Shown here: positions 476 to 62,468 of the stretch, piece by piece | Numbering within the stretch: the stretch's first letter is position 1 | How the letters are laid out: each line of letters begins with the position of its first letter | The notes under the pieces: model-generated | Told to the model about the DNA's origin: nothing | Seen by the model: only the letters and a program-made list of their open reading frames with translations | The model's database searches: none | Assembly: GCF_028641065.1 (NCBI RefSeq) | Contig: NC_073377.1 | Span: forward strand, 64,914,001-64,978,000 | Direction: 5' to 3' | DNA: 64,000 nucleotides | Source of the DNA: Leucoraja erinacea | Lineage: Eukaryota | Translations under genes and position numbers: made by a program

Positions 476-2329
476 CAGTCAATAAACTATCGCATCTGTG
501 CAACTAAAAGAAGCGACCTTAGTTGATGAGAATTTGTTGTTTCCGATGAATTGATCAGTAAAAACCCTGTGAAAGGTGAATCAATCAGCCCCTAATTGTA
601 GAAGATCATTGTAATATGGAGTATCCTGTTTCACAAAACTTGGGCTCAATTGCAGACCATAGGTGTTCCAGGAACACGGCTTCACCTAGTGCTTCAGCAC
701 AAGCATTCCAAATCAGTTCTTCCCGACACTCTCCACTAATCCTGAGAGATCAACAGTCATATTTCTGCCACATAATGCAATTTGTAACAAATGCAAATGG
801 GAGGATGAGCAACCAAAAGCCAGCTGAGCATTTATGGATCACACACCGGGTTTCACCAAGCTTAGTCCTTGTGACATTTCAGTATGTGGTCATTTTCACT
901 GAAGGGCTTCTCAGTCCTATGATGAATCAGGGTATTGCACGTAGAGCTTACAAGATATCTCCTCTTGGGATGATGTTGGGTTGACAGCCATGCTTGCTGG
1001 GGAGATAACTTCCCACTAACAGTCCAAGTCAAACTGCAGGTGGGACAACATTGGCCACCCGTAAATACTCCCAGAAAGATATCAAATGGAAGGCACAGCA
1101 GTAAAAAAAGGAATAGAACATGCGATACGTGTTACAATGTTTGTACTTTAGTGTTTTGTTCCGGTAATACACTACAAAGCAACCGCAACTAGATTTATAT
1201 TGCATCTTTAATGCTAGAAAATATACCAAGATGCATTAAAAGAGCACTTGGTCAGAAGTTGCTTTTAAGGAGCTTATTTCTGTGATTTTGTTGAGCATTT
1301 CTTGCAAATGTGATTTCTGGATATAGGGCTATTAGTGACTTTTTTTTTTAAAGCAACACCATTTTGTGTTAAGGGAGTTGACAAGATGAAATGTGCTAAT
1401 ACTTGCCTGTGGTGAACATTTCTTCCAATTTCCTCTGGCCTGTATTTCCAGTAAAATAAGAATGCTTTAATCCATTTCCCAGTTCACTAAAAACACTGAC
1501 AAATTATCTCCTCCTGAGGTGTTAAAGAGATTGGAATTACATCTCATTCTCTTTCCTGATTACCGGCTGGAACTGTTCACCCTCCCCTTCCCCCTTCAAC
1601 AACATACAATTCTGCATACTTGTCCACGCATCCAACTTGGCAAATGTTCAGAGTCATAAACTCATCTGTAATCATTTAACAGATGATCTGTGAATGGAAA
1701 GAAAGTCTCTGTTCATTCAAAACCTACTTCAGCTGGCAACACACGGGCTCTCAGAGAAGCCCCAGTGAGGAAGTCAAAACACAGCCAGTGTCCTGAAGGT
1801 ATAAGTGTGCATCTTCTACAACACAACATCCTTCATCTCACTCTGACCTGAAAGCATTGTGATCTGTCTAAACTGCTCTCTCATCAATTAGAATCTGAGG
1901 TAGGTAAACCCGTCTGTACAGAATTAAAATCGAAGTTACAAATGGAGACGCAATTTGTTTCAGGTTGAAAACGGGTCCCGACCTGAAATGTTGCCTATCC
2001 ATTCGCTCCATTGATGGATACCTGACCTACTGAGTTACTCCAGCACTTTGTGCTTTTACAAATGGAGACTGGTTTCATCTTAAAGCACATCTCGGTTCAT
2101 GATGAAAACTAAAATCCTAGTATTGAGCAGTAACAGTCTGACAAATCAAAGCCAAGCAAGGTATGAGAATACATGTGATGTGCCAAAGAAATTTAGCATA
2201 TGCCAAAAACATTGCATACGCTTGCTAATCAAATCTCAATTGTTCAACAAATTTGCTTTACCCAGTCCATTAATGATCACCAGGGAGGACAGGAAAGAAG
2301 GGTGGATGTTGATTTATTAACCCTAAATG

Positions 2330-2790
2330 ATTGGGGAGAGTGTAAAATAGGTTTATCAGAATGCTGCTTGGATTAGATGGTATTAACTTTAAGGAGAGGT
2401 TGGACAAACTTAGATTGGTTTTGCTGGAGTGTCAGAAGCTGAGGGGAGACCTGATAGATGCATATAAACTTTTGAGAGGCATAGACAGAGTAGACAGTCA
2501 GAACCTTGTGCCCTGGGTGAAAATGTCAACAACTAGAAGGCATAGCTGTAAGGTTAAAGGGATAAACTTTCAAGGAGTGGTGAGGGGCAAGTTTTATTTA
2601 CACAGAGAGTGGTGGATGCCTGGAACATGCTGCCGAGGTGGTGGGGAAGTGACTCAAGAGGTTTGCGGATAGGCACATGGGTATGCAGGGAATGAAGGGA
2701 TATGAATTGGTTCAGATATGGCATCATGTTTGGCGCGGACATTGTGGGTGGAAGGGCCATTTATGAGCTGTATTCCTCTATGTTCTATGT
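2330..2790 (+). mobile_element. CR1 LINE 3' fragment (old)
   Basis: ERLDKLRL...LRGDLIDAYKLLRGIDRVD is the CR1 ORF2 C-terminus, followed by a ...gaagggcc...tctatgttctatg tail. Confidence 0.85.
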
Positions 2791-2894
2791 TGATGGATCG
2801 TTTGTTGGAAAAATTCTAAATTTGGAATTATCTCACATAATTGCACATTGACTCATTTAAAATTATTGGGTTTTTTTTAATCTAAGGAAGGTTC

Positions 2895-3170
2895 AGCAAC
2901 TCCAATGCCCAGGAATGAAGGAGATTACAAAAAGTGGTCAATGCTGCCCAGTCCATCATGGGTGCTGACCTTCCCACCATCGAAGGGATCAACAGGAGGC
3001 ACTGCCTCAAAAAGGCAGCCAGCGTCATCAAGGACCCCCACCTCCCTGGCCACACACTCATTTCACTCCTGCCATTGAAAAGAAGGCACAGGAGCCTGAA
3101 AACTGTAAGTCCACGTTCAGGAACAGCTTCTTCCCGACAACCATCAGGCTATTGAATACTACAAACTCCA
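2895..3170 (+). mobile_element. Rex1/Babar-like LINE 3' fragment
   Basis: VNAAQSIMGADLPTIEGI..RHCLKKAASVIKDPHLPGH; homologous to 61436-61735. Confidence 0.75.
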
Positions 3171-5899
3171 GCTCTACTCTGAACTACAACCTGCCTTGAT
3201 TGCACTGGAGACTTTTAGCATTGATTTGTTTTTCTTTTCTATTATATTGTACTTTTTATTTATTGAACTTATTTTTATGTTCGTTTATTACATTATCTAT
3301 GGAATGCTGTGCATAAAATAATGTAATCGTTCTGTTTCGATAATTATGCCAATGGAACATCCTTGACTCTGGGCCTGATGTTTGAGCTTGGCTGGAAAAG
3401 CCGGTGAAGAAGGGTCTCGACCCGAAACGTCACCCATTCCTCTATCCAGAGATGCTGCCTCATGAGTTACTCCAGCTTTTTGTGTCTATCTAAGGGTTAA
3501 TAATGCATCGACTTGTACTGTGAGAGACAATCCACAAGGTGGAGCTGTGTCTCCACCGATCAACAACTTGCTGCCTGGAGTTGCCTGGATATTAACATGC
3601 ACACCTACCCCCCACTCCATCATTTAGACTAGCAGTGGACTCACAAAACTCCGCTACACAGACACAACATCCGCATCCAGCTTTATATTTTGCAGCATGT
3701 ATTTACTTTTATTGCATTGATTATGTACTGTCTCCAACTGTAGTTGTACTACATGTATTTTTAAACGTGGAGACAACTCGAACGTGAAGTTATTCAAATA
3801 AATCTAAATCTAAGTCACTGATTCGGGAAGGAAAACTAAACAAAAACAAAAAAAATCTACCTTAGCATTGCATTTATATTAGAACATTAAAAGATCAACC
3901 AAGTAAATTAATGTTGCAGTTTAATTAAATGTGAATAGTATGTCATTTTCGCATGTTTGCTAAATTTGCTTTAACTTTTTCAAACGAAATAAACAGACAA
4001 AACGATATTCTTCATTGTGATTCTATTTAACAGAAGATTTAGGGCGCGAAGTATTTGGAGCAGAGGCTAATCCTTTCCTGGAACTGGGAATGCGTGGAAA
4101 ACGGGCTGTTTTTGTGATTTACCTGCCGCTGATACGGAACCCCCGCCTAAACAACAAAAGCTGTAAACATTTATTTCTGAGAAAGCGAGTAATGTTAATT
4201 ACGGCCAGTGAGTTCTGGGCTAAATTTAAATCAGACGCCACTGCCTAAACTTTCCCAGGATTTGAATCCTGCAATTTAGTCTAAATGCAATAAGTATTTA
4301 GCCATTTTAAAATGCAGGCTTACAGGGGAAATATAATGGCTATTTTAATTTAACGATATACTGTGCTCGTTAAATGAAGGTTATGTTAGACTCGAAGAAA
4401 TGTTTAAAACTGTAAACATGTAATAAGCATTTTTTGTCTATGAGCGCTGTTTTCCTTTTGGAGAACTTGGCGCAATTGAGATACCTGTATTGTTTTGTCA
4501 AATACTGATACAACTGAAGCTGTTAAATTCTCCAACATCCTTTCAACTTCTATTCAATCTGATGAAAGTCCATAGTATTCGGGTGTCCCACATTTTGGGT
4601 GGTGTAAACGCAAGTACAGGGGCACATCCAAAGCGGGCGATCCTGTTACTGTGCAGGCAATGTCACCCCAATAAACCAGACACTGCCACAACGCTGCAGC
4701 TAGTTTTGATGATTATTTTCCACGGCATTGTTGGCATTGTTTTCTACCCCCAAATGCAACGAATCTCCAATGCATTTAGAAATACACAGAGAGCGTTTGT
4801 GATAAAATGTTCGGAGAATAAAACGAAGGCACGGGGAACCCCAGATGATGGAATCTAGAACAAAACACAAAGCGCTGGAGTAACTCAGCAGGTCAGGCAG
4901 CGGCAGTCTGAGGAAGGGTTCCGCCCCTAATGTCGCCTATCCATTCCCTCCACAGATGCTGCCTGGCCGTTTGAGTTACTCCAACACTTTGTGTTTAGGC
5001 GGAGAGCAAACACCAATCTTCCAATGCAAGCTGGAGTAAAATCTGGCAAAACTAAAATAACTGCGAATCAACTGGGTCGACAGCGTTGCCCCGCGAATTG
5101 CCACTTTCTGAAAACTGGTTATTGCCCTTAATAGTAAGTGAGTAGAGAACAAGAGGGCTGTTGCAACAATATGAATACTTATGCTGTGGTGAACCATGAG
5201 TGCAATTCTACCCAGATCGTGTAGGGGGCGCCATAGTTCCCGTCTCGCACTCGCATTTGTACAAATTTCTATTCGATCTCCCGATGCTCAGTTCCATCAA
5301 TAATTCGATCCGAATTAGTGTCAACAAAACTCAAAGTGCTTTGTTTTCGTTTACTCGCCGTCCGCACAATTTTCTAACCTATTTCTGTAACGTTTTTCCA
5401 AATACTCACATGAGTTGATAAATCAATCATATATTGTTATCTATTCGTATTCGTTTCAAAGTTAGTGCGTTTTGAAAAAGCAAAATTATTTTGTAAACAC
5501 TTTAATGTTATCCATGCCACAAATAGGTACAACTACCCAGCGTCTACGTGAGCCTTGTACGGACAATGCTACTCAGTTATAGTTTTAGTCAAAACACAAC
5601 CCGCTGGTGGAGCCCAGCGGGTCACACAGCAGCATCTGTGGGGAGAGTGGACCGGCGACGTTTCAGGTCGGGACCCTTCTTCAGTCTGGCGTAGGGTCCT
5701 GACCCGAAAGGTCGTCTATCCATTTCACTCTCCAGATGCTGCCTGACCTGCTGAGTTCCTCCAGAACTTTGTGTTTTGCTCAACATTCCAGCATCTGCAC
5801 CGTCTTGGTTCTCCGTAGCTTTAGTTATTTCAACCACGTATGTATGAGATAGGGTTTATGATTCGAACCCCAATAATTGATCACATTTATTTGTCTCTC

Positions 5900-8800
5900 G
5901 ACTACCAAAGATTGGTAAATTGAAATTTCGTTTCTACGGTCAATAGGCTTTGCTCTGCGTGTGCACATGTAAGCAGCAGTTTGAAAACTTGGGTTCTGAG
6001 ACTGTAAACCATTACCCTGCCTGCTGTAGTAAAAGTCAGACACATAAGTCTTAGTTATCAGACTCAGCGAACCGCTTTTAATGTTCGCCCTCTGGAGACC
6101 ATCAAAAAGGGGGCAGCAGAATCCAGACTGACAGAGCCACGGTCCAAAACCGCTGTGCAAAAATCCTATTCGGCCCCTCGGAGACCGAGAGATGGGATTG
6201 GACAACGAACGCCTCTCTTGTGTAATGATGATGGGGTGTAATGAAAACCCTCCCGTGCTCACTTGAGCTGGCATCTTGCAAACGACGAGCAATGCCTCCC
6301 CCCGCTGGCGCTGGCCATCTCCCCATCGGAGAGAAGGTTTCGAGCACCGATTGCAATCTGTCCCGCTGCCCCAAATACTGCCATGAGTTAATAAAAGATT
6401 GAACTGCCTGCCCGGAATAGAACTACACAGCCACGCGATCGTCAATAACGAATATAAACGGGTTACAACAGTTTAAAACATTCGCCTCGCATTTATCAAA
6501 TACAGGGATTAAACTAGGGCGAATAGAAGGGATTTCCCTGGGACAGAAATTGCTTTATCAAAAGGTTGCCTTACAGGCGCTCCATTGTACTCGACTTTAC
6601 ATGGCTAGAAGCAACAGCAGCAGAAGCAGCTCCTTAAAGTGCCAGCTACCGACTGAGGTCGGATGCCCACTCTCCGTGCGCTCTCTTTTATCGCCATAGC
6701 GCGCGTTAACCGTTTCGGTGCCACCCGGACAGCTGGTCCAGTCCTCCCGCTGGGTTTTGGCACTTGGGTAAAGAGCTTGAAGATAGCTTCGGGCCAAATG
6801 GTTGCGCGACCCGCCGCCCGCTGGTTCTCAATCTGCTGTGTGAAAAATCAGGCGAAATGTTGGCGTTGGGGGGTGGGGGCTGTGAGAGAATGGTTGGAGA
6901 TTGTACTGAGAAAGAAAGGTGGGGGCGTAGGGGAACTGTGAGCCCCGTGCCTTTGAGAAAAGCCCAGAACTAAAAAAAAACGCAGGGAAACTTATAATAG
7001 ACTACAGATGTATTACTGGGGAGTGTGTATAAGTATGTGGATCAGGGAGGATGGGGGAGGGGATGGAGAAAAAGAGAAACAGCGAGAGAAGAGAGAGGAG
7101 AGATTATAAAAAGGAATGACGGAAATAAAAAAGGAAACGTGCAAAGGAAAGAAAGGGGAAAGATAAGAGGACAGTTGAGGTGGGAACGACTGGGAAAGAC
7201 GGCGCCTCAGAGAGCGGAAAGAGGAATTATTTACTGATGGGGTCCATCATACAGAAAAGAGCCTAATGCTTAACAGAAATAGCCCAAGCTGCAGGGAAGA
7301 TGTGTGAGCGCTAACAGGGAGAAGTGATGGGACTGGGGGTTGCGGGGAAACGGCAGAATGCTCCGAGACAAAGAGTCGCGCAACTAAAATAAACGCCCGT
7401 TCTGTTCCTACCTCGGTTACTTTAGCGCCCGCCGAAACTCCAGCACAGCTCACAACTCAGTGCAGCTCACTTCACGGACACTCCAACAGTCCTGGCACCG
7501 TTCTCCTTTCCTTCCTGTTTACGCAATTCATCCGCATGGCAAGCCTCCCGGACAATCCAAAAAATCTCTCCCTCCTCCACCCTCGATCCAGGGACAGTAT
7601 AGTATTGCCAGCAAAAAAAAAAAATCCTGTATCTTGTTCGAAATTCCTTAAACCCCTGACGCAGGCAACCGATGGCTTCCACATCCACCGCCAATGTGTT
7701 TGTCATTATAGGATCTGCGCACCAAAGCCATCATCGTTAGTGCTGTCCAAGTGCAATGCAACGAGCGGCGGGCTGGCGTGACACAACACCATCGGAGGCA
7801 GCAGTCCACTCACTCCCATCACACAACAGCAACACACCAAAAAACCCACTGCAGTCCTCAGACAAGTATTTCACATTCAACCTCCAGCCTCTCCAAGTCA
7901 AAGAAATTCGCACTCCCGCACAATTTTTTTTAAGCCAAAGATAACAATCTTCAGAAAATAGTCGTCCACACTAATATTAGTAGCTAAAAACTCTCGGAAT
8001 AAATTCGAAACAACTCTGAAACTGACCCTGTGTGTGTGTGGAGTGAGAAAACGAAACGGAGTTAGCAATTTGCGTTCCTCTGTCACAGCTTTCGAGCGTG
8101 AATTTCTTTACGAAATCGTCGAGCAACGATAATAAAACAAGCCAGCATCGGCTTAATTAATTTACTTCACGTTCCCCTTACCTTGCGTAAAGTGGTAAAT
8201 CCACAAACTCCTCTTAAAACGGGCGGCAGCATATAGGTTTAACGTTGGAGTTGTGCTCTGGCTGTTAATGGGCGCACAGAACAGCGTCTTGTAATTGATT
8301 CAATGTTGCAGTCCATCCTTCCAAAAAAACTAATCATTTGCTTTAAGTAAATAACTGTCAGGAAATGAAGCCCCTGTGGTCGCTTCAGAATAAGAGTCTC
8401 TGCTCTGCTCTCAGTCAGCGCCGGGAGTCTTGCTATAGCTTGAGATTCTAGAGGTTGCGCCTCCCCAACTCTTATCCACGCAGGGGCACAGTCACAACTA
8501 GGGCCGTCTTATTCAGAAAGTTGCCATATGTGCGTTTTGTAGAAAGTTTTGTACGGTGGAGAACCTTATTTTTGTTGTTCATCTTCCAGATCTTTGTGAA
8601 CAGATTTACACATCAAGCGATTTTACGAGAACAATGTATATTCGTAATACTATTTCGAAATAAATAATTTTAACTAGGTGCAAGAACTGGGTATTTTTAA
8701 GGGAAGGGAGGTGATTAAATGCTTTCTATTTCGTTTTTCTCTCTCTCAGCGTTTACGACCACCATAAATCTACAGGAAAAACAAGTTTTTGAAAAGCAGA

Positions 8801-9400
8801 ACGCATTTCATAACACCATGTAATTGTGTTGCTGTGTGATAAATTGGTCGTTTTCGATGAGTGACTCGCAGCAACTCCCGTTAGTAAAAGAAGGAGGCGC
8901 CCTTGCTCTGTCCCACTTTTCGTTTGCGATTGTACAGAAATCTCAGTTTTCGTGGATAATAAGGTTGTTCTGATTCTCGGTCCCAACCCCCTCTTTACTA
9001 TTTGGGCAGAAAGAAAGCAACGGGCTTGCGGGAGATTTTGGGGGTGTTGAAGATGGGGGAGAGCTACTGAACCAGCGCAGTGTTTATACACGGGTGGTAA
9101 AGTGTGTGTGTCAGTCAGACTCTGCTGGAAGGAGCGGGCGGCTGCGATGGTTTGGGGTTTTTTTTTTGTTTGCTGAGTGATGTTTCTCATCTTGCCTCCA
9201 GCCGCTAGCTGCAGTAATATATCTTCAGCGCTGTGAAGGTACAGGCGAACTATTACTTCCACATGTGCTCCAGGAAATCGTTGGGAGGCAACGCCAGGCC
9301 AGTCCGGCCAGTCTCTTGTTGGTGGCTACTCGGGAAATCCATAATACCCCAGAACAACTAGCCGACGGCACCGTGCCGGACACTTGTGCGTTTGAAATGG
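5900..9400. promoter_or_regulatory. CpG-rich, repeat-poor island-like region around the PDGFRA-like first exon
   Basis: Visibly more CG dinucleotides than the CpG-depleted flanks and few interspersed repeats. Boundaries approximate. Confidence 0.55.
8182..8400 (-). promoter_or_regulatory. pdgfra: PDGFRA-like proximal promoter / non-coding exon 1
   Basis: Minus strand reads ttcctgacagttatttacttaaagcaaatgattagtttttttggaaggatggactgcaacattgaatcaattacaagacgc, very close to the human PDGFRA 5' sequence as I recall it (TTCCTGACAGCTATTTACTTAGAGCAAATGATTAGTTTTAGAAGGATGGACTATAACATTGAATCAATTACAAAACGC). Followed by donor CAAG|gtaagg at 8182/8181. Same strand as Pdx, as expected for Gsx2-Pdx2-PDGFRA. No PDGFRA coding exon recognised in the window. 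Confidence 0.8.
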
Positions 9401-10039
9401 AAGCAAGAACATGTTATAAATAATGCACACTTCCCGAACGAGAGAAAAAAAATGTTTTGGAAGGGAACTGCAGATGCTGGTTTACAAAAAAAACCCACAA
9501 AAAAACTGGAATAACTCAGGGGCTCGAGGTGTACCCAGTCTTTATATCAGTTTTCACCTTCCCCTGCTCGTTTTATCCCCTTTCCACTTCCTTGGCGTTT
9601 CCCTCCTTGTCCTCTCCCACCTTCTCTTGCCTTATCCATTTGTATATTAATTTTCTGTTTATAACTACGCGTTAGGTATCATCCTTTTCATTTATATAGA
9701 AGAAACCTGGCACTGACATAAAATAAGTTCTGTTAGCCGCCTTTCCACGACAAATTCCTTAGTTTATAGGCAATCAAGGATCAAGAGTGTTTTATTGCCA
9801 TATGTCCCGTTAACGCCACTGGTCCACATTGGTTAGGATTAGATGGTGGCTGCGCGACTTTGAGAAGTCGTGGAGGCTTGTTTGGGTGTGATTTGGCTGT
9901 GGAGGCGGAGTCCTGGGTACTCTGAAAGTTATTGCTGGTTCCTGGAAACAAACTGGTCGCCGACTTTGACGGGATAATGTAAACATCGAGGTCAGAGCAA
10001 ACTTGAGTACAAGTGGAATGAGTGTGAGAGAGACGGGGG

Positions 10040-10071
<32 letters not shown>

Positions 10072-10629
10072 AGTGGCGAAGGCGCATTTGATACCGAACT
10101 GACTGGTTAACACCAAAACGATTGCACAATACTTGGTTACCCGTTCACGCAGACCGTGGCCGTCTGTGCATTGGCCCTTTGGTTTGTCTAGAATAAATTG
10201 GAATAATGCCTCGCCCAAAGACCGGGGTAGACTTGATGGGCCGAATGGCCTAATTCTGCTCCTATCGCTTCTGAATTTATGAACTTATGTCCAGGCCATC
10301 GCTGCGACTGACCAACGAGCCTGGCTGGATGGTCTCTCTTCACTGGCACACAGGCTACCCCAGTTCTACATGGTCGGGTCAGAGTGTCTTGGATCATCTA
10401 GCTTCAACATCCCAGCTAAACGCGGTATCCCTCAATGAACTCAGCGCCTAATTAAACCAACACAGTTGACACCAGCTACCCCATTCTAACCCCCTCCGCC
10501 ATTGTACAATTGGAGGGGATGGAGACGAGAGCCGGCAGGTTTGGGTTTGGGTAGTCCATTGGCTCCATGGTTTGGTCCGGTTACATCCCTGTGTCTTGAC
10601 CGCAGGTGGAACACTAGTTGCTGCTGGAA

Positions 10630-10925
10630 GGTGGGACAGCGGTAGAGTTCCGCGGTACAGCGCTACTTTTACAGCGCCAGAGACCCAGGTTGGATTCTGA
10701 CTACGGGTGCTGTCTGTCTAGTGCCTGTACCTTCTCCCCGTGACCTTGTGTGTTTCCCCCTGGTGCTCCGGTTTCCTCCCACACTCCAAAAGACGTACAG
10801 GTTTGTAGGTTAATTGCCTTCTGGAAATGTTCCCAGCAGTTAGGATAGCTACAGGGGGTCGCCGATCAGCGTAGACTCGGTGAGCCGAAGGGCCCGTTTC
10901 CACGCCGTATCATTAAACCAAACTA
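10630..10925 (+). mobile_element. tRNA-derived V-SINE (HE1-like)
   Basis: tRNA-like head (cagcggtagag...gacccagg), V-domain ttctccccgtgacc...ggtgctccggtttcctcccacactccaaaga, and CR1-type tail gccgaagggcccgtttcc. Confidence 0.8.
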
Positions 10926-10992
10926 ATTCATGAACAACTATCGTTCATCTCGGTGCTTCTGTGAACGAGTCTCTTCGTTCATAAACAACATT

Positions 10993-11031
<39 letters not shown>

Positions 11032-12789
11032 GAGGGACATCCGGCATTAACGTGCATGCGACCAGTCTACATTTATGCACAGCTGAGATAGGACGTACAT
11101 ATGCCACGTAACTCTTTACACAAACACATATCAGCATAATCCGATCAGGATCTGGAGAAGGCGATAACTCATTTGCAGATTACTCTCATGTTAGTTTATT
11201 CCAACCTCGAGATTTGAAATCTAACCATTGCGGTTCGATGCAGGTGCAGGTTGGGATAAAACTAAAGACTTTTCCATGAATAAATTCACGATTTGCTCCA
11301 ACATTTCGCAGTCCAGAATCCAGCAATTATTTAGATTGTCGTTTCCGTTTGTTTTGTGACCTTACTCAAAATGAATGCTTTGATGTACATTCTAAACAAG
11401 CAAAAACTGTTCCAAACAACAGTGTCACCAAGCGGAAATCAAAGCATCGCCCTGTTTATGATCATGCAGTTGATGGAGCTCCAGTACATCCCCGGGACGG
11501 CTGCCAGCGAGCGCTGCCTGTCACTCTCTGGAGATCGAGCATTGACCCCCAACTCCCCTTAGCGCATTCAACTGCAATTACCAGTCTCGTTCGCAGAGTC
11601 TCTGTTCCGCGCTCATTAACAAACATTTACCATAAAAAAGTTCCCTTGTGTGTGAATTTATTTGCGGATCTGGGAATGTGACAAGAGGAAGGGACGAAGT
11701 GGGCAGAACCAGCCCTCTGCCTGGAACGCAATCACCTCTCACTTTGTAGCTAATCTGCTTCATTTAATGCAGCGAGAGCAGACTAACTCCCCGTTTGATT
11801 GCCTTGGAGTCAGGGGAGTAATGGCGGGGTGAATATTACTGAAACTGCTGTCGCTCGGTGGGATGTCGTTTGTAAATCCCAAACATTTAAATCTCTCCGC
11901 GTCTTTTGCCCGACGCGGATTGTTAAATCGGACCAGCTGGGCCCTCATCTTGCTGGGGATGATCTGCCGGGAAAAAGGCAATTAAATAAACTGCCCGGCG
12001 ACCTGAGTGGAATCTGTGTGGTCCTAATGGGCAGGAGGGTAAAAAAATGCCTCCAAATTGACAGGTCTGTTTGTTTATTTGTTTCTTATCAGGCCGTGCG
12101 TCTGATAGAAAGCGTTAAAATGCTCACCATATGTGTCCCCCGATGGTTTATTGAAGACCTCTAGTCCCTACAGTGCCAACTCCTTGACCATATGTCACAC
12201 AGTGCTGGGACTCAAAGTAACCCATCGAAATGATACGAGTTTTTTGTATTAATCCCAATATGAGATGAATATTGAGTGAATTGTTCGCCACCTCTACAAA
12301 AAACATTGGATATGTTCAGAATCAGCACTAATAGAATCCAGACTTCGGTTTTACCACAACCCCACGCAGTGAGCGCTATTCGTCTCAAAATAACTATTAC
12401 TCTGTTCCCTGTGAGTGATAGCTAAGGCTCGTTGTTCCTTTGGGTGAGAGGGGATGTCTATATTAATTTTTGCGTGATTTTTAAATGTAATCGATTTGGG
12501 ATTAGTAGGTTCGTGTGAGCAGTTACTGCCAGCGCCTACCGCGAATTGGCCGCAAATGTAAACTAGCTGTGGCGTTTGATCTCATCTTTGAGACCAAGGT
12601 TTTACTGATTGATGCTCAAGCACGCTTCACCCGTGTAGCAGAGAGTACGTGCGACTTCAGCGTGCCAGCTTAGTTTCATGACTTTAAACCTTCATGTTTG
12701 TTTTGGAGATCAGATGATTTGTTAGGTCGCGAGTGCTGAAATTAAATAAAGACACAGAGTGATGGAGTAACTCGGTGAGTCAGGCAGCA

Positions 12790-23170: not shown

Positions 23171-23175
23171 CCTAT

Positions 23176-49908: not shown

Positions 49909-51202
49909 ATGCCGCCTGACATATTGGTTCTCTCCTGCTTTCCTGCTTGTTGATCTATGGTTTCGTTTATTCAAGATTCCAGCTCCTGAAGTCCATTGTG
50001 TTCCTGACCAGTATGCAGATTATTGGAAAATGTCCACATTAACAATTGTTGTTAATACGGTTTACTCTCTGACAAATATTGCATGGTATTGTTGACATAT
50101 TTATTAACCAATATGTAAAACTAGTAAGATATAATGTTGTATCAATTATGCAATGAGATTCAATTATCTATCTGAATCTATCTGAGGAAGGGTCTCGACC
50201 CGAAACGCCACCAGTTCCTTCGCTCCATAGATGCTGCCTCACCCGCTGAGTTTCTCCAGCATTTTTGTCTACTTTCGAGTTTTCCAGCATCTGCAGTTCT
50301 TTCTTAAACAATTATCTTTCTGTTTCTTTCACATGCAATTACTAATTCGCGTAAAGTGTATTTCACGTGTACTGATCTCTGAACATGGCATCCATTTATT
50401 TCTTTAAAAGATTGAGAGGTATTTTCCCCTTGAGTATTCACCACGCAATCGTTCATCTGAATCTAATCCCAGTTCCACCTTGGTTTACTTTTATAAGCAT
50501 AGGATCCTGACAATATCCCGATTTTCCCCCATTTTACTTTCCTTTTCCGTTCTCGTTCAACTGAGTTAATAATTCTATTGATTATATGTTAATGAGCAAG
50601 TTGTGCTCTCGTCCCTGAAGTTGCTTGATAATAAACGCGGCGTGAATAATGTTTTCCAGGTAATAGTAGTAGTATACGGTAATGGTAAATTCGAAGGAAT
50701 GTGTCTGTAAGTAAAATTGTGCCGACTTCTTCACTGCTGATCACCACCAATTAGTGTTGAATAATTCTCAAACTGTTTTATAATAAACACGTGCCTACTG
50801 CTCCTTTTCTGAATCTGACCATGTCGGAGAATCAAATTTAGGAAAATATTTCTTTAACATTTTTCTGCCAATTAATCATGAGTTCATTTGAACCGCACTT
50901 TGCCCTCGACAGAATTGTTAATGTTGGTTTATTCTGCTTGTTATTGTATTTCAGTTCAAGTTGAACAAAGAAATGTTAACCCATCCAAAACATATCCTGG
51001 ACATATCCTGGCTCCATGCATCCATTAATATGGATTCTTGTCTCTGTGTTAGAAAACTATCCTTTTTCTCCAGACATGCTGCCTGGCCCGCTGAGTTACT
51101 CCAGCGCTTTGACTATTTTTAGAAAACTGCTCGTCTGACCGGAGTAATCGCCACTGTCAGATATTAAAATACATAGGGCATGATCTTCATTTGAATGTTG
51201 CA

Positions 51203-51208
51203 TTTATT
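51203..51208 (-). terminator. Candidate polyadenylation signal (AATAAA) of the Pdx gene
   Basis: Plus-strand tttatt about 120 nt downstream of the stop codon. Other AATAAA hexamers lie further downstream. Confidence 0.4.
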
Positions 51209-51328
51209 CCTTGCAATATATTAAATATTTAAAATGGAAATAAGTGTGGCCATATTGAATAACTGATAAAATGTTACAACATTTACCATCAAGAATATCA
51301 ATAATCAATATATTTTTAGAAGGATGTG

Positions 51329-51723
51329 TTAAAAATGTAATTCCTGTGCTAATAGTAGATGTCCAACTTCGCTATTCATCGAAGTAACTGAAAAATCATT
51401 ATTTGTCTTATTGAATGAGTTTTCGGAGTAACTCCCTTCAAACTCCTCTCCCGCATAGTTTTCGCATAGCGTGCGTTTTGCTTTGCTTGTAATGGTCTTG
51501 ACTTGCCCTTTCGCTTCTTCCTTCTTCCATTTCATCCTCCTGTTTTGGAACCAGATTTTGATGTGCCTCTCGGTGAGATTCAACAACGCGGCGAGTTCCA
51601 CCCGCCGGGGCCTGGAGATGTACTTGGCGAAGTGGAACTCTTTTTCCAGTTCCAACAGCTGACCCCTGCTGTAGGCCGTTCGAGTTCTTTTGCTTTCATC
51701 CCCGTCCATCGGGTGGCTGTTTC
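51329..51723 (-). CDS. pdx2: Pdx homeobox gene, coding exon 2 (homeodomain and C-terminus)
   Basis: Acceptor ctttcttgcag|GA joins exon 1 in frame ([10 protein letters not shown]). Homeodomain [60 protein letters not shown] (51694-51515) carries the Pdx-diagnostic His44. Stop TAA at 51331-51329. Spliced CDS is 714 nt (237 aa); intron is 3835 nt. Confidence 0.93.
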
Positions 51724-54700
51724 CTGCAAGAAAGCCAGATATTCACTGAAAACAAATAACTTAATGAAGCTGAAAAAAGCCTCACGAGCCGAAAAGTCAC
51801 ATATCCATTCATGTTCTCTGGAGATTCCACCTGACCGACTGACTTACTCCAACACTGTGTGTATGTTTATGGTAAACCAGCGTCTGCAGTTCCTGGTGTC
51901 CAGTTTAATGATACCTGCAGATTGAGCGAAATAAGAACACATTTCTGGAGGAACCGAGCGGGTCAGGCAGTATCTGCAGAAGGAAACGGACAATTTTCGG
52001 GTCGGGACTCTTCATCGGTGTTCTTCGCTCAAAACCCCAGCATCTGCGGTTTCTCGTGGCCCGGCAGTCTGCGGTTTCTCGTGGCCCGGCAGTCTGAGGT
52101 TTTCGTCCCGAGTCGGGATGTGTTGGCCGTTCACAAAGTTCAATTTTCAACTCGAGCACTTGAAAAATGAGTAGGAAGGAACTGCAGATGCTGGTTTACA
52201 CCGATGACAGACTTACAAAGCTGGAGTAACTCTGCGGGTCACAAATAAGTGACGTTTTATAAGAAACGCCACGTATTCCTTTTCTCCAGAGATGCTGTGT
52301 GGCCCTTTGAAAAATGACTATCAAAAATCGACATCATTTTCTGGAACATTGTCGAGAGGCGATTGATAGTCAAGAACTAATTTTTCAAAGGGCCCAAAAC
52401 ATTCTGAAATTCTCTGACGCGTTAATTGACTTTGAACTTCTAAATGTAATTGTAACTCGTCTTATTCTCGCAAATCATAATGATACGTTAACCAATATCT
52501 TTTAGTCGGAGGGGAGGGAATCACCTTAATTGCAGATTCTGGTCCAGTTTCGTCGGAAATGAAATACACCTATCTACGTCCTCCGCTGATGTTGCCTGGC
52601 CCGGTGAATTACTCCAGGACTTGGTGTTTTTTACAATGATGGGATCTGAAACATTACCAGAACCATGGGTGATCTATCATGAATCTCAGATATATAAAGT
52701 AGCGCAGGGTGCCCAAGATACATTAAGCGCGCTGATGGACAAGTACTTATTTCCTGTGCGATATGTTGGTAGTTACGGGAAAATAACATAAAATTGCTGA
52801 AAATTCCTTCCAATTGCGGTCATTGTTTTGGTCTTCAATGCCCTTTTTCTTGAACAACAATTTTTGAAATTCACTGGAGTCCTTGAGAATCAATTAGTCA
52901 TCCAAACAAGGCATGTCTTCGTTGCTCCTTTAGTAACAGGTGCCATATCGATACAATTGCCCTGAGAACTTCATGGAATCTCAAGGTTCCAGGGGATTCA
53001 GAAATTGTTCTGCGCAAATTAAATCCTCAGAAAACTCAGTTTTCCCGAAAATTGTAGTAGGCATGGAACCCCAAAAGCCACTATAAAATTGTATGATTAA
53101 ATACAACTTTAGAAAAAAAAAGCTACCATGGGTGCTTGAATTGGGTGTCCCAAATCCTTCATCATAAACACCGAAGAAAATTGAAACAATAGGATATAAA
53201 ATGGAACATAGCTTGACTACTCTTTGTTAACAATTAAGTTAGATCGTCATTGGTAACATATCGGCATCTCCCTGCCCTGTTACCGTATTCCTTCATTTCT
53301 AGGTTTCATAAGTATATGTTCAATTTAATATTAATGTTGGATTGAAAGCCAGTGCTCTTTTGTAACTCGATACATGATACAGTAAATCGTGAAATTAAAA
53401 TATTTTAACAGAACCTAAAATAATCTTATTTTTAGCGCGTCATTAACCCATCTTCTATTCTCTTGTATTTAAATATCAAACCACGTTTTTTGGCACCGAT
53501 AAACTGGTTACTGCTTTATGCGGTGCCTGGTCGGGTAATAAAAACGAATAAGGTGATTTCCTTTCGTTGATCTTCACCAAGGTAGGTGGATTGGGGCAGG
53601 TACATATTGCATTCTCTAAATGTATACGTTGCCATTTCAGACCGAAGATTGGAGATGTGCGTGGATTTGTTCCCATTGAGTGGCGTTTGCATTTATCTGT
53701 GGGAAGTTTTGTCCTTGGAGGTGTCCATTAAGAAATGTTGGAGTTTATTTCTAGCACAGATTAATATAATTTCATTTCTACGATTTGATTTTTTTTTGTG
53801 GATTTGAAATCTCCTTACATTAAGACAATAGGTATTTACTCCAATATATATATAACACACACACACACATGTATGCATATATATATTAATGAGCAACAAT
53901 TAATTAGCATATATATATATGCTAATTAATTGGTGCTAATTAATAGAGCACAGGTATAAAGCTTTAAGTATAGACATTTTTTTTAAATACTGTAATAATA
54001 TTTATTTGCACCTGGCAAATGCAGACGGTCAAAATCAAATGCAAGTTCAGCTAAATTTAACCGGAGTGCCTTTTAAGTGAGACTGGTTACTAATTTGTAC
54101 TCTCCGTCGGCATGGATGTTGTGGGCCGAAAAGCCTGTTGTTGTAAGGTGTAATTATTGTCACTATTATATTGCTTGTTTTAATCATAATGACCCATTTT
54201 CTATTGATGATCAACTGCATTAACTTCCCGTTTGCAGCCCGTCTGCTTTACATTCTACGCTTGATTTAAACTGATTTAAATTTTGGTCTAAACATCAATC
54301 ATTTCTTAATATGTAATTAAAAATCACTATATTATCACCTGCTGAGAAGAAAATTCCTAATAAATGGTAGCATTGTAAAGTAACTATATTTTCCATCACC
54401 TTTTAAATCCCAGAATTTCTGCACAACATTTCTCGAAAGAAATGCGCAGAGAAGGGAAATTGATTTTATTCTTGCGATAATAACATTTATGCAATTACCA
54501 TGTCGCGGAAATTTGTGTCAACAAATTCACGGTGAGCATAAGTGCCAAGATAAGTCTCCAAATAATTAAATGTATAGGAGAGTGGGATTTCGGGCCCACC
54601 CAGTTGCCTTCCCACAGACGATTCGCAACGTTGTGCATTTTCGCCACTCTAATCAAGGAAGGGGTGAGCGTCTACGGTAAAACGCTCCAGGAAGATAGAG

Positions 54701-54974
54701 CTGTGACATTCCTCCTGGATGATTCAGCCCCGATTGACCATTTCCCACGTTTCTTGTTGCTTCGTTCCACCTGCATAGCAACCGTCAAATTCAACAAGTA
54801 ATCTTCGACATATGCCGGGCGAATATGCTTGGCTGCAGCACGGGCGTTGTCGAGCTTTTAAATATATTTTATATCCAGGGTTAACAATGGCCTTTATAAT
54901 TCGAGGGGGGGGGGAGGGAATACTTGATTTGCCACTGTCATGACTTTGAATTGATTTTTTGGCTGCACCTATTA

Positions 54975-55280
54975 GGGGCGGCACAGAGGCGCGCCTGCTA
55001 GTTGTGCTTCACAGCTCCAGAGACCCAGGTTTCAATCCTGACCTCAGCTGTTGGCTGTGTGGAGTTTGCACCTTCTCATTGTGACCGTGTGGGTTTCCTC
55101 TGGGTGCTCCAGTTTCCTCTCGCATCCCAAAAGGCAATCGGCCTCCGTTAATTGCCCCAGGTATACAGGGAGTGGATGCGAAGCTGGGATAACATGCATG
55201 TATGTGAACTGGTGATCAATGGTCGGCTTTGACTTGGTGGGACGAAGGGCCTATTTCCATGCTGTGTCTCTAAATTAAGC
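54975..55280 (+). mobile_element. V-SINE (HE1-like) in the Pdx intron
   Basis: ggggcggcacag... head, V-domain gtgtggagtttgca...gggtttcctctgggtgctccagtttcc, and tail gaagggcctatttccatgctgt. Confidence 0.8.
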
Positions 55281-55558
55281 TATCGTCGGGTGATGAATAT
55301 ATTGGAGTGTGCATTCTTGATTACATTTATGTTTTCTATATATACCCCAGGGATGCGTGGCCACACGCAGAAATATATCTCACGCAATGGACGTACTTCT
55401 TTAAACGCGCGATGTAGTGATAACATTTCTCAGTAAAATTATCATATACATTATCTACGAAAATGTGTGGGTGATTATTATGGTTAAGAACTTTTGACAT
55501 TTCGTTCATCCCTCCTACTAAACACAAAACGGACTATTTGATGATCCTGTAACCGTAC

Positions 55559-55877
55559 CTGCCCACTGATCGCTCCAAGCATAGGCATGCGATTTAGTAT
55601 TTTTCATCCAAGGGAACGGGTAGCGCCCCTGAGGTTCACGGTTCTCCGCGTACTCGGCGTTGAGAAAATTCACCTGGGGAAGGTGGCAAGAGTTCAGATC
55701 TGCCGGACTGCCGTAGGGGGTGAAATCCGTCAAATTCTGCTGGTTGAAATCGCCCAAGCACGACCCGAGGAGAGGGGGCTGCGGATTCCCATCGTAGATG
55801 CAGGCAGGTGGATCTTGCGTGTATTCCAGTCCCTGGTATTGGCAGGCACTTTCGAAATAGTCCACGTCGCAATCCAT
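55559..55877 (-). CDS. pdx2: Pdx (Xlox) ParaHox homeobox gene, coding exon 1 (transactivation region and hexapeptide)
   Basis: Translates MDCDVDYFESACQY...DPPACIY...DFTPY...YPFPWMKNTKSHAYAWSDQWAG, matching Pdx motifs (PPACLY, DISPY, PFPWMKSTKAHAW..QWAG). Phase-1 donor GCAG|gtacgg after 55559. An alternative in-frame ATG lies at 55898. Pdx family call is strong; Pdx2 versus Pdx1 rests on synteny and divergence. Confidence 0.9.
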
Positions 55878-56640
55878 AACTGAGACGCGTTCTAACATCT
55901 ACGTAGATCGTATGCTCACACCTGGTCACAAACTCTCTACCTGGTTCTTTGTCATGTGATTATTTGTCAGTCTATTATTGGCGGGTCGAGAACAAATGAG
56001 CGTTTGCTTTTCTTAGAAAAACGCAATGCATCTTATGTGAACCATAGCAATAGGGAACAATATACCGTGATAATAATCTGGCTGAGTTTCTGCACATCCG
56101 CTTGTTTCTACTGCAACTATCTAACTCTTGGAAAATGGTTGTAAAGAGCAAAGAGTAGAATCAGAATTTGTATGCAATGAGTTCGAAACATCAATTGCAC
56201 TGTTCCAATGAACTTTGGACATATTACATCTGCAAAATAATCAGGTAAGAGGGGATATAACGTACTGCGGTATATTGTATGTCGATATGGAAATGCGTGG
56301 GTGGGCATGTACATATCACACGTGTTTGACATATACGTTGAAATCAATGCCTTAAAAAAGAGGAAATCAAGCAACAGAGAAAATAGAGGCTGGGGTAGTA
56401 GGCATTGCGAGCCCGCACGTCGTTCTATGCCTTCATGGTATAGTCTCTATCTCTATAACATATTCATGTTCTTCCCCCCACTCTAATACAGCCCCAAATC
56501 CCTGGATGCGATTTGTGTCGAGAAATCTGCCCCTCCCATCAACTATTCAGAGATTGTTCTCCACTGTTTTTCCTGGTAATATTACAAATTCATCACTGAG
56601 AGAAGAAATATCTACCAATATTTAATATTCACCAATATCT

Positions 56641-56950
56641 CGGCACGGTGGCGCAGCGGTAGAGTTGCTGCCTTACAGCGCTTGCAACGCCGGAGACCCG
56701 GGTTCGATCCCACCTGCTTGTACGGAGTTTGTACGTTCTCCCCGTGACCTGCGTGGGTTTTCTCAGAGATCTTCGGTTTCCTCGCACACTCCAAAGCCGC
56801 ACAGGTAATTGGCTTGGTAAATGTAAACATTTTCCCGTGTGTGTAGGATACTGTTAATACGCGGGTGTCGCTTGTCGGCGCGGGACCCGGTGGGCCGAAG
56901 GGCCTGTTTCCGCGCTGTAACTCTAAAATTAAAAAAACCTAAAACTAAAT
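56641..56950 (+). mobile_element. V-SINE (HE1-like), well preserved, upstream of Pdx
   Basis: cggcacggtggcgcagcggtagag (A box), gggttcgatcc (B box), V-domain, and tail gggccgaagggcctgtttccgcgctgta. Confidence 0.9.
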
Positions 56951-58519
56951 CTCGCCTAATATTTTATCGTCTGTACAGAGATGGCGACCCTCGGAGTAGA
57001 CGCCCTCCTCTGCATACTCCCCACGTCCAAATGGATGCATAATAACAGGTCATAAGACTCCAAACCACATAATCCTGTTTTTTTTCATACAGACTAGAGT
57101 TTGTTCATTTATCATTCCATGCATGTGCATATTTAGTTGTAATTATTCGGTTATTTTCTTATTCTTTCCACAATTAGGAAGATGATACGCTCTTGTCTTC
57201 CATCACAGTGCATTGTGGTAGATGTTTATGTTAATTTTAGTGTAGTTGTGTGTCTTGTTGCTTTTTTGGAATGACTGTGCAGCAAATCAAATTCCTTGTA
57301 TGTTTTTTACACACTTGGCTAATAAATTAGTTACAATTACAATTAGTTACAATTACAATTACAATTAGCCTTTTATTGAGAGTGGTTAGATTTGCCTTCT
57401 CCAGCCGGTAGTCATTCCGCAAACCCTTCATCAATTTAACTTTTTAAAATGATTATAAAAGGCAAATGATTCAAACGTATAAAATAAAACTATCCTTTGT
57501 ATTAACATTTATCCTTGGTATGTATTGATTTCCAAATCCATTGCTTCCAAGCCATTTAGTAGGTTTAAGTGCTGACGGCAGGTTTGTATGTCCTCAGCAC
57601 GGTAGCACAGAACAGGGACATTTACAATGGATTAGAAACAGTTTACAATAGCAGCCTTGTGCCAATTGTTGATTTACACAAGCACTCGACTGATTAATAG
57701 GATTTTATTTCTACCAGTGACCTCTGTTCAACAGAACAGATAGATTTGTTCCCTCCACACCCTGTACCCCACCCCACCAGCACACTGAGATTATGAAATA
57801 ACATTGCTAATCAAGCTGTTACTTCTGGTGCCATTCACTGTCAGTTTAAGAACACGCCTCTCATTGAACTAAAGTTTGGTCTAAGGTATTCTGCCGTCGT
57901 GGTGAAGGTATTGATTTTCTCCAGTTTATTCTGTATCCTGTGTACACAGTAGAAATAAATGACCTATTGACCCGCTATCAGGTAACAAACTATAGGTTGA
58001 CTTGGATACCAAAGCATGGTGGTATTGAACAAAGATTATCCAGCAGGAAAATAGCTGCTGTTTTCATGTTGTCTCTCCCCTATTTATTTAGAAATGCTAC
58101 CTGAACCTGTTTCCGATATTTAATTTTTAAAAAAGAATGTAAATAATGTTTAACAGTGCATTTGTTGGAACTCCACACGTATATATTACAATAGTGCATC
58201 ATTTGGAAAAAAAAATGAATATCCGTGGAAATTACAGATTCTGCCACGTTTGGTTACTACCGAAATTCTTGGCTTACACTATCAGTGCCGAGTGTCACCT
58301 CTTTGACTCGTTCACAATTCAAAACCCACCCACCCACCCTTTCAATCTCTACCTTTCTCTCTCTCTACCTCTCTCTCTCTCTCTCTTTCACTCACAGACA
58401 CACAGGAATGTAATCTCTGCCCTGGATTGTAGCTTTGGAAAGGAGAGTCAGAGACGTCGCACAATGGGTGGTGGAGTGGGGGCGGGAGGGTGTTAAGAGG
58501 TTTCATTTATTATAAATAT

Positions 58520-59290: not shown

Positions 59291-59893
59291 AATATTTATA
59301 TTTATATCAACAATATTTCACAAGGGCAACATCACTTAAAATATGTATGGATTATATCATGTAGTTTATTTCCGTGCAATTGTTGTCATCCTCTGATGAA
59401 TAAAAAATAAATAAATAACTTCCCTGTGGAGCATTACATTTTAAATGCTCGCTCAACAATATTTGATATAGTTTTTATAACATTTTTTGAAGAGCAAGGT
59501 AATAGCTACTACCATAATCGGAGGCATTAAATGGTAACGTTCTTGAACTGACATTAACGCATCTTTGTGTAAGCAAGCTCTACTTCTGAGTTCTTAGCAA
59601 AAGCAAAGAAAACTCGTGCATTTGCATGAACTTTGTTTTCTTCGTGGGCACTTAAAAAATTGGAAATAATTTATGTGAGCAGCCTTATCATCTTCATGAT
59701 GATAAGGCTCATCTTCATACAGAAGATAGACATGAAATGCTGGAGTAACGCAGCAGGCCAGGCTATATGTCCGTCTGGAAATGGGTTGAAATCAGTTAGG
59801 AGTTAATTCAGAAACAGAAATTCAGCCTTGGATGGACAAGGGCTGCACAATCTCTGGGCTGTTCTGAACAAGTGCATCGCTGCATGCTGGGAG

Positions 59894-60045
59894 GCACCAT
59901 GCACTGCACCATGCACTGCACCATGCACTGCACCATGCACTGCACCATGCACTGCACCATGCACTGCACCATGCACTGCACCATGCACTGCACCATGCAC
60001 TGCACCATGCACTGCACCATGCACTGCACCATGCACTGCACATGC
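59894..60045. repeat. 12-bp minisatellite (GCACCATGCACT) x12
   Basis: Twelve perfect units from 59894 to 60037 plus a partial unit. Confidence 0.95.
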
Positions 60046-61362: not shown

Positions 61363-61449
61363 AAAATAAATATAGCGAGTTAGACAAAATTTAAAAAGCA
61401 GGATCTCCAGGGTACTAATCTCCAGATTACTTCCAGTGCCATTTGCTAG

Positions 61450-61955
61450 TAGCCACTTGAGCGCCCAGGAGCGGAAAAGACTACAAAAAGTAGTAAACAC
61501 TGCCCCGTCCATCATCGGCTCGGACCTCTCTACCATCGAGGGGATCTATCGCAGTCGCTGCCTCAAAAAGGCTGGCAGCATCATCAAGGACCCACACCAT
61601 CCTGGCCACACACTCATCTCTCCACTACCTTCAGGTAGAGGGTACAGGAGCCTGAAGACTGCAATGTCCAGGTTCAGAAATAGCTACTTCCCCACAGCCA
61701 TCAGGCTATTAAACACAACCCAAACAAAACTCTGAATAGACCATTATCTGCAAATAGACCATTATCCATTTAAATGCACTTTATCTGTTTATTTATTCTT
61801 GTGTGTATATATTCATATAATGGTATATGGACACACTGATCTGTTCTGTATTCATGCCTACTATATTCTGTTGTGCTGAAGCAAAGCATGAATTTCATTG
61901 TCCTATCTGGCAAACATGACAATAAACTCTCTTGAATCTTGAATCTTGAATCTTG
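61450..61955 (+). mobile_element. Rex1/Babar LINE 3' end
   Basis: RKRLQKVVNTA..IIG..L...Y.SRCLKKA..IIKDPHHPGH...LPSGR.YRSL...RFRNSYFP.AIRLLN; tail aataaactct(cttgaat)n. Confidence 0.85.
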
Positions 61956-62435
61956 ACGGTAGGAACAGGACGATAGGACAGATGGCTGAGGAGTTGGTGC
62001 AATGGTCACAGATTCAGATTTTTGGAACATTTGTGATCTCATCTGGGAAGGAGGTGACCTGTACACGAGGGATGTGTTGCACCTGTGCTGAAGGACAGGC
62101 AGGTTTGCTAATGCTACACGGGTGGGTTTAAACTAGATTAGGAAGGGGAGGGGGCCAGATTGGATCCAATTCAGGTGAGAGGCAGGAAGTTGGTATGGAA
62201 GGAGATGAAAGGAAGTTCAGAAGACAGAGTAGGCAGGAGCACAGCAGGTATCAAGGAAGGACTGTTAAACTGCATTGTGAGAGTCCTGACGGATGCTCAG
62301 GGTGTGGATAGGTATGTGCAACTGGAACATTGTAGCCATTGTGGAAACCTGGCTAACAGAGGGACAAGATGAAGATAGTCACAAAATGCTGGAGTAACTC
62401 AGCAGGACAGGCAGTATCTCTGGATAGAAAGAATG

Positions 62436-62468
62436 GGTGACGTTTCGGGTTGTGACCCTTCGTCAGTC
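62436..62468 (-). ncRNA. Minimal type I hammerhead ribozyme motif
   Basis: Minus strand GA-CTGACGA-A-GGGT-CACA-ACCC-GAAA-CGTC-ACC. Confidence 0.6.

Follow-up and report, generated by a model that had tools for sequence, protein, structure and literature searches.

The 64,000-nt stretch of Leucoraja erinacea DNA analyzed here (contig NC_073377.1 of assembly GCF_028641065.1, positions 64,914,001 to 64,978,000; hereafter the window, with positions counted from its first letter) contains a Pdx-type homeobox gene, decayed LINE-type fragments, and two broken Penelope-like elements (PLEs), the terminal repeat of which recurs across the window as a short unit headed by a hammerhead ribozyme motif. 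We hold with good confidence that these motifs are minimal hammerheads on decaying copies of the PLE terminal repeat, that the copies were probably inserted individually by target-primed reverse transcription from RNA that was likely uncut, and that they are likely inactive.

Detection of the repeat family

A repeat profile built from seven copies in the window, with hits kept at E ≤ 0.03 (one further hit at E = 0.68 was dropped), found 31 pieces of the repeat, 14 on the + strand and 17 on the − strand, which cover 4.1% of the window (2,618 nt). Searched as a control, the reversed window gave two hits only, with E values of 0.58 and 0.82. A first-pass annotation of this DNA had named 17 positions of a recurrent motif of about 30 nt, and all 17 fall on pieces of this one family. 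The recurrence thus stands, but the motif is not a free-standing 30-mer: it forms the 5′ head of a dispersed unit of 90 to 135 nt, of which 14 further pieces had gone unlisted. Six copies satisfy a hammerhead descriptor (CUGANGA, paired stem II, and GAAA..UH, with helix I optional), having C3 at 5684, 14829, 15493, 41607, 46809, and 62466, against a background of 0.16 passes per dinucleotide-shuffled window (100 shuffles). All six lie on the − strand, whereas the 16 motif copies (those containing the first box with an alignable stem) split 8/8; this was noticed post hoc and is possibly chance.

An Rfam search gave eight matches at E ≤ 5 with no hammerhead family among them. Weak miRNA-family Rfam hits stem from a perfect 12-nt tandem array at 59894–60040 with self-complementary parts. 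A metagenome scan with a 31-letter motif pattern yielded 0 loci, and one with a GIY-YIG piece yielded two distant loci with no convincing minimal hammerhead, which were not used.

Parent PLEs

Hammerhead positions are given in the standard numbering (C3, A9, 10.1, 17, and so on). The two PLE copies, with their reverse transcriptase (RT) remains, target-site duplications (TSDs), and hammerheads, are as follows.

46679–48231, − strand: 5′-truncated PLE copy with RT thumb, Cys linker, GIY-YIG, 3′ untranslated region, hammerhead, and tail; 14-bp TSD
46782–46809, − strand: hammerhead of the PLE terminal repeat, C3 through H17; G16.2>A and a UUCG loop
41480–43912, − strand: second decayed 5′-truncated PLE copy, 76% identical to the first; 9-bp TSD
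41580–41607, − strand: hammerhead motif in the PLE terminal repeat; C11.1>U, 2.1–1.1 pair lost

In Pfam, the reading frame at 46927–47610 matched GIY-YIG weakly (E = 2e-4), its 22.1 bits falling just below the 22.6 cut-off. The frame before it has 361 relatives, the named top hits being shark and stingray proteins of 63 to 67% identity; many of the relatives carry RVT_1 and some GIY-YIG. Full-length relatives align along both PLE copies, each of which has RT with GIY-YIG at the C terminus in one ORF, broken by frameshifts. Ahead of the nuclease, each copy has the CX2-5CxxC linker that marks Neptune and Nematis elements (PMC8557442). Both copies end in the repeat, with the hammerhead about 115 to 130 nt behind the end of the GIY-YIG open reading frame, which agrees with the first-pass annotation on the placement of two copies and supports its view that the motif is of PLE origin. 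The repeat is the terminal repeat of a putatively Neptune-type PLE, the clade being read from these sequence features. The RT of the second copy is split by an unrelated insert at ~43111–43706, which resembles 23384–23683 in inverted orientation.

Hammerhead anatomy

The majority layout consists of the C3–A9 box, one extra A, a 4-bp stem II with a 4-nt loop, GAAA, CG, UC, and the cleavage site, and at every core position the expected base is the majority one among the 16 copies. The extra unpaired A between A9 and 10.1 occurs in 15 of the 16. The 10.1–11.1 pair is G-C in 11 copies and G·U in four; at the palindromic 15.2–16.2 positions, C15.2 is kept in 10 and G16.2 in 14, the losses being mostly of CpG type. 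By sequence and position the motif is assigned to the PLE minimal-hammerhead class, and the proposed minimal type I form with a palindromic ACGU in place of helix III fits the alignment.

Nine copies had been called intact or near-intact, which was an overstatement. Among them, C3>G is found in 3404, G10.1>A in 12793, U16.1>C in 50182, G16.2>A in 46809, C15.2>U in 15493, and C11.1>U in 5684, 14829, and 41607; 62466 alone keeps all 15 core positions, without the 2.1–1.1 pair that closes helix I. None of the 16 copies combines a full core with that pair, and 14829, with G·U at 10.1–11.1 and a 2-bp helix I, comes closest to completeness.

Helix I is weak: U2.1 faces A or G, G2.2 faces C, the third position is mismatched, and 62.5% of cells are paired. 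Its pairing probability is near 0 in the folded copies, which are mutated. Helix I spans 2 to 6 bp in the published minimal-hammerhead alignment, where two-pair versions exist but have two G-C pairs (PMC4209133). Here one of the two pairs is weak, and helix I is marginal. After the cleavage site, positions 1.1 and 1.4 show shared variants, A/G and C/U, which are plain transitions; both would keep pairing with a G/U-rich partner. As speculation, a longer helix I might be supplied by a spliced-in exon.

Decay of the copies

Decay was compared on 14 copies, two without the downstream part being dropped. Non-CpG core cells differed from the majority in 10 of 140 cases (7.1%), and downstream non-CpG cells, with shared subfamily-variant columns removed, in 36 of 463 (7.8%; p = 1.0 versus the core). 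CpG sites decayed fastest, 13 of 56 core CpG cells being changed (p = 0.003). Between subfamilies the core is invariant and the adjoining linker has 26.5% mismatch. Subfamilies thus differ outside the core, as expected from selected masters, and single copies decay evenly.

Stem II is paired in 90.5% of cells, and the varied but paired stems had been offered as structural evidence. Pairing is, however, kept through one-sided CpG-type G·U changes, the sole two-sided change sits in a degenerate copy, and the covariation score of the 16 copies, which are close subfamilies of one family, was 0.160 versus 0.131 in shuffles, 67 of 500 shuffles scoring as high; covariation was accordingly rejected as evidence. 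C11.1 is present in 73 to 75% of RNA reads. In seven of nine folded copies the stem II probability was ≤0.26, the 5′ arm pairing instead with pyrimidines after the cleavage site, and folding of the whole unit gave no z-score below −0.6 in eight folds. Cofolding of three copies as dimers placed a skeleton of stem II plus helix III 13 to 31 kcal/mol above the minimum; as the skeleton lacked the remaining pairs, this is a crude calculation not used as proof. Because no copy is intact, the core decays like the flank, and stem II gives no compensatory signal, the copies look dead, and the solo copies are likely inactive today.

These folds bear on the idea that the motif no longer cleaves even in master elements and is kept as a protein-binding, promoter, or splice signal. 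The short helix I (U-A or U·G plus G-C), the poorly formed stem II, and the derivation of inserts from uncut RNA all speak for it, as does the statement that PLE families without canonical hammerheads thrive and that the function is unclear (PMC8557442). Yet the folds were of mutated copies as naked RNA and say nothing decisive about masters, the anole PLE hammerhead cleaves only with protein (PMC11167929), a 2-bp helix I is found in published PLE hammerheads from Culex, D. virilis, and Oikopleura (PMC4209133), and the core is invariant beside its divergent linker. We consider this idea doubtful, though deserving of some weight.

Target sites, 3′ ends, and inverted pairs

The solo and paired copies are listed below.

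14736–14832, − strand: solo short form starting 3 nt before C3; hammerhead at 14802–14829; 12-bp TSD with one mismatch
62370–62469, − strand: solo short form starting 3 nt before C3; core 15/15, helix I closing pair lost; 12-bp TSD
50175–50308, + strand: solo long form with tail, U16.1>C; 14-bp TSD with one mismatch
1950–2055, + strand: solo copy with degenerate hammerhead; 14-bp TSD
3404–3500, + strand: solo copy lacking C3 or with C3>G; no TSD found
4842–4997, both strands: head-to-head pair; − piece 4842–4902 without hammerhead, + copy 4905–4997 with broken GAAA
5590–5799, both strands: head-to-head pair, C3 at 5684 (−) and 5686 (+), overlapping across a CAG-N-CTG palindrome just before C3
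12748–13042, both strands: four-piece composite of two head-to-head pairs, C3 at 12793 (+) and 12955 (−); 13-bp TSD with one mismatch
15399–15580, both strands: head-to-head pair, C3 at 15493 (−), the partner beginning in loop II
22417–22498, − strand: piece starting in stem II, previously unlisted
36477–36577, + strand: solo copy with decayed head; 8-bp TSD
44396–44531, − strand: solo long form starting 4 nt before C3, stem II deletion; weak 7-bp TSD
45014–45099, − strand: degenerate piece, previously unlisted
49658–49686, + strand: degenerate piece, hammerhead only
51059–51118, + strand: piece starting 2 to 4 nt after the predicted cleavage site; 10-bp TSD
51768–52018, both strands: two degenerate copies, tail to tail, in the Pdx intron, C3 at 51770 (+) and 52018 (−)
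52171–52306, both strands: two truncated pieces, head to head, in the Pdx intron; 11-bp TSD
52567–52629, + strand: piece without hammerhead in the Pdx intron
9468–9525, 40543–40607, and 59716–59779, all − strand: tail-end pieces without hammerhead

Of 26 units tested against 145 random pairs, with two artefactual rows dropped, 10 had TSDs of 8 to 14 bp at p ≤ 0.03, and four further units were weak (p ~0.12). The duplications have an AT content of 0.69 versus 0.56 for the window. In eight TSD-defined copies the unit has two 3′ ends about 40 nt apart, 91 to 97 and 127 to 135 nt from C3, and loose ends with A/T-rich flanks cluster at 41517–41521 in four sequencing runs and at 41477 in two RNA runs. 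The two ends correspond to the optional 30–40-nt PLE tail, which in the anole PLE was traced to two internal reverse-transcription start sites (PMC11167929).

Eight adjacent pairs were found, six head to head, two tail to tail, and none in tandem. Head-to-head inverted repeats with palindromic junctions have been described (PMC3846280). The four alternating pieces at 12748–13042 lie within one 13-bp duplication and are apparently a single composite integration. Such arrangements bear on a further explanation, in which the solo copies were left, like solo long terminal repeats (LTRs), by recombination between the terminal repeats of full elements. A TSD would result from recombination as well, as would a fixed 5′ edge provided that full elements begin there; recombination does not account for head-to-head pairs with unequal partners, for the composite inside one TSD, or for the 14 pieces whose starts are scattered within the unit, and the available homology is only ~100 to 130 nt. 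We regard it as very unlikely.

Since inverted partners lie on opposite strands, they form no cis-dimer with each other. The closest same-strand copies are 524 to 778 nt apart with at least one partner broken. The suggested action of these copies as dimers is not supported, neighboring copies being inverted and never tandem, and cis-dimers are unlikely. That the solo copies are working ribozymes, under selection and cutting host pre-mRNA as dimers, would suit their very high copy number and transcription and, post hoc, the location of all six descriptor-passing copies on the Pdx sense strand. This proposal was not borne out, given the broken cores and helix I, the equal decay of core and flank, the lack of covariation and of tandem neighbors, a broken sense copy in the Pdx intron, and the absence of an RNA-end pile-up; we give it next to no credence.

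A fixed 5′ edge

Fifteen solo copies extend as far as C3, and in every one the match to the sequence upstream of C3 in the PLE-linked copies lasts for 0 to 6 nt only, whereas the two PLE-linked copies continue 1.4 and 2.3 kb upstream, and no piece of intermediate length was found in the window. Starts defined by TSDs, two of them weak, lie 2, 3, 3, 4, 7, and 15 nt before C3. When a constant truncation rate was fitted to the 14 pieces with scattered starts, 15 stops out of 17 within six bases had a probability of ~4e-17, under a rough model that counts paired pieces as independent. The reads broadly concur: in run X24, RNA depth fell from ~21,500 over the core to ~540 in the next bin upstream and was ~1,900 at the ORF end, although part of the drop reflects subfamily divergence.

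Because the solo inserts span the scissile bond, we infer that their templates were likely uncut at this hammerhead. Uncleaved RNA was the dominant substrate of the anole PLE (PMC11167929). No RNA-end pile-up was seen on the examined stretch in two raw RNA runs, although standard RNA-seq is poor at showing 5′-OH or capped ends, which counts among the points that weaken our interpretation. Several others do so. Some of the reads clipped at 41612 have a pyrimidine tract in common beyond that point (agreement 0.47), and from these clipped reads 10 to 20% of transcribed copies are longer than the edge. The exact insertion ends come from one 64-kb window, the loose ends are the six top ones per run, and the profile stops at the edge itself, so that its start positions alone are no proof of the edge. 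A convincing TSD was lacking in 14 of 26 tested units. The TSD-defined piece at 51059, and perhaps that at 52567, start near the cleavage site; 51059 is the sole TSD-defined copy compatible with a cleaved template, and some cleaved templates are possible. Finally, with subfamily-variable columns kept, downstream decay was 79 of 574 (13.8%) against 7.1% in the core (p = 0.03), a gap that we read as selection on masters and that could include some on copies.

The sequence at the edge is open to three readings: an initiator-like TCAGT, a pyrimidine tract followed by a 3′ splice site, and an interrupted palindrome of 9 nt at the center of the inverted pair 5684/5686. In the D. virilis Penelope an intron ends five bases before C3 (PMC2377424; Table S1 of PMC4209133). 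We favor a transcript start over splicing, since the copies of a spliced template should have a first exon in common. None was seen: the upstream flanks of the solo copies look unrelated, leading us to reject this template, and no shared-first-exon joint appeared among the 15 joints shown of ~1,250 in the reads.

Abundance in sequencing reads

One DNA run placed 404,706 of 24.9 million contigs on a 600-nt stretch carrying the repeat (57,332 only partly), a figure that is not a copy number, and two RNA runs from poly(A)-type libraries placed 73,091 of 12.9 million (0.57%) and 25,281 of 7.3 million (0.34%) reads on it. These counts support the very high abundance claimed for the repeat. Provided that this window is typical, the six motifs passing the descriptor in 64 kb correspond to ~90,000 per gigabase. 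Between 94 and 95% of matching RNA reads run on into unlike sequence, with the strands about equal over the unit, which fits passive read-through of very many copies. At the PLE ORF end (41700–42019) in run X21, first mates were about twice as often on the − as on the + strand, unlike those over the short unit. The commonest read subfamily differs just after the cleavage site (41567) from both ORF-linked copies, and its ORF-bearing master is absent from the window.

The short unit might instead be a non-autonomous, SINE-like family with its own short master transcripts, mobilized in trans by the PLE protein. A hard 5′ edge, two discrete lengths, TSDs, and an at least 10-fold excess over the ORF end would all be expected of such a family, and the commonest read variant, seen as a loose end at 41567, is unlike either PLE-linked copy at that point. 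Variants common to solo copies and both PLE-linked copies, however, imply no single founder, the RNA reads behave as passive read-through would, and the runs lack an RNA-end pile-up. We judge this family unlikely.

The Pdx gene and other features of the window

The Pdx-type homeobox gene lies on the − strand in two exons, with an FPWM hexapeptide.

55558–55898, − strand: Pdx exon 1, ending near 55558
51724–55557 (approximate), − strand: Pdx intron
51329–51742, − strand: block of Pdx exon 2, which starts near 51723

The gene is likely the Pdx2 paralogue of cartilaginous fish, and a literature search on that identity found no paper. Its intron holds five repeat pieces, and the sole sense-strand hammerhead (52018) has four core changes. 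Copies had been placed inside presumed PDGFRA and Pdx introns; the Pdx part holds, with broken hammerheads, and the PDGFRA part was not confirmed, no PDGFRA exon having been found. Kinase, Ig, and signal-peptide motifs gave no credible PDGFRA exon in the window, and Pfam returned nothing relevant to PDGFRA on 107 of 117 stop-to-stop segments of at least 75 aa outside transposable element blocks, the other 10 overlapping Pdx exon 2, the start of its intron, exon 1, or the PLE end. A long PDGFRA intron or non-coding exon within the window is possible.

Many decayed LINE-type fragments lie at the following positions, with RVT_1 confirmed at 24156–25478 and 28799–30151.

18157–19437, 24153–25481, and 33096–35551, + strand
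28042–31234 and 14051–14761, − strand

At 63290–63996 (+), overlapping open frames of 152 and 181 aa without a Pfam match are possibly the start of a retroelement that runs off the window. Long stretches at ~4000–18000 and 46000–57000 have a CpG observed/expected ratio of ~0.65 to 1.0, which suggests low methylation around developmental genes.

Discussion

The observations can be joined in a mechanism in which the PLE protein would nick AT-rich DNA and cDNA would start at either of two internal sites, lying ~95 and 130 nt downstream of C3; two such sites were shown in vitro for the anole PLE (PMC11167929). In about nine of 10 events, synthesis would end at a fixed point immediately 5′ of the core or short of it, and joining of two cDNAs, or fold-back at the palindrome, would give the inverted pairs. 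Selection on the hammerhead would act on master elements only. A stronger form, which we put forward tentatively as possible but short of probable, is that the hammerhead is the extreme 5′ end of the PLE template RNA, and that internal priming in the leading repeat with run-off 2 to 4 nt before C3 mass-produces a SINE-like hammerhead-plus-tail unit from uncut RNA, perhaps to 10^5 copies per gigabase in this lineage.

The class is known. The PLE minimal hammerheads of Cervera and de la Pena 2014 (PMC4209133) have the same CUGANGA-A-G...C-GAAA-CG-UC layout, the same extra base before stem II, the palindromic ACGU for helix III, and the same place behind an RT-GIY-YIG ORF, and many rows of Fig. 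S3 match. They too are mostly solo, "probably related to truncated PLEs", and include opposite-strand pairs, with thousands of solo copies reported in other animals. Cartilaginous fish are absent from the Table S1 and Fig. S3 lists, and a fixed 5′ edge is not among the features described in the parts consulted. The density here (16 motifs, six passing, in 64 kb) would, if the window is typical, lie far above the 4,000 of coelacanth or 9,000 of Xenopus, a comparison that is indicative only given our looser descriptor.

Neptune-clade PLEs with an endonuclease (PMC8557442) share the RT, the Cys-rich CX2-5CxxC linker, and the C-terminal GIY-YIG, together with 5′ truncation, inverted 5′ pieces, TSDs, and the optional 30–40-nt tail; the copies here, by contrast, are all broken and 5′-truncated, and the linker also occurs in Nematis. 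The Poseidon element PAc of Anolis carolinensis (Frangieh et al. 2024, PMC11167929) has the same two 3′ ends, ~100 to 135 nt past the hammerhead start, AT-rich targets, an uncleaved RNA template, and no RNA-seq ends at the cleavage site, but it belongs to a different clade and was tested in vitro, whereas our evidence consists of fossil insertions. Non-LTR retrozymes (PMC7229834; bioRxiv 10.64898/2026.07.22.740005), reported from one chondrichthyan, are likewise non-coding and PLE-derived, with a type I hammerhead and dispersed monomers. They are defined by tandem hammerhead units; with no tandem neighbors and a minimal hammerhead, the repeat is not a tandem retrozyme.

Earlier publications already describe solo copies, pairs on opposite strands, tails, and uncut templates, and this analysis adds, for this family, the TSDs, the two 3′ ends ~40 nt apart, and the hard 5′ edge. 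A search of titles and abstract openings on shark, skate, and elasmobranch Penelope hammerheads, truncation, and uncleaved templates, which did not extend to Lunse et al. 2017 (PMC5785218) and several supplements, found neither this family nor the fixed edge.

As a ribozyme discovery the finding is ordinary, the class being known and the copies looking dead, and its value lies in the insertion anatomy. The repeat's share of the window (~4%) and of RNA-seq reads (0.3 to 0.6%) is relevant when genomes of cartilaginous fish are masked for repeats or searched for genes. The hammerhead's role in PLEs that bear an endonuclease has been called unclear (PMC8557442). So abundant a family allows inserts beginning at the cleavage site to be counted genome-wide against those beginning immediately ahead of the core, and such a count would test directly, by computation, if and when cutting occurs in vivo. 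If the hammerhead does form the template RNA's 5′ end, this would explain animal genomes full of complete solo minimal hammerheads, and the insertion ends would document across the genome how seldom the ribozyme cuts in vivo.

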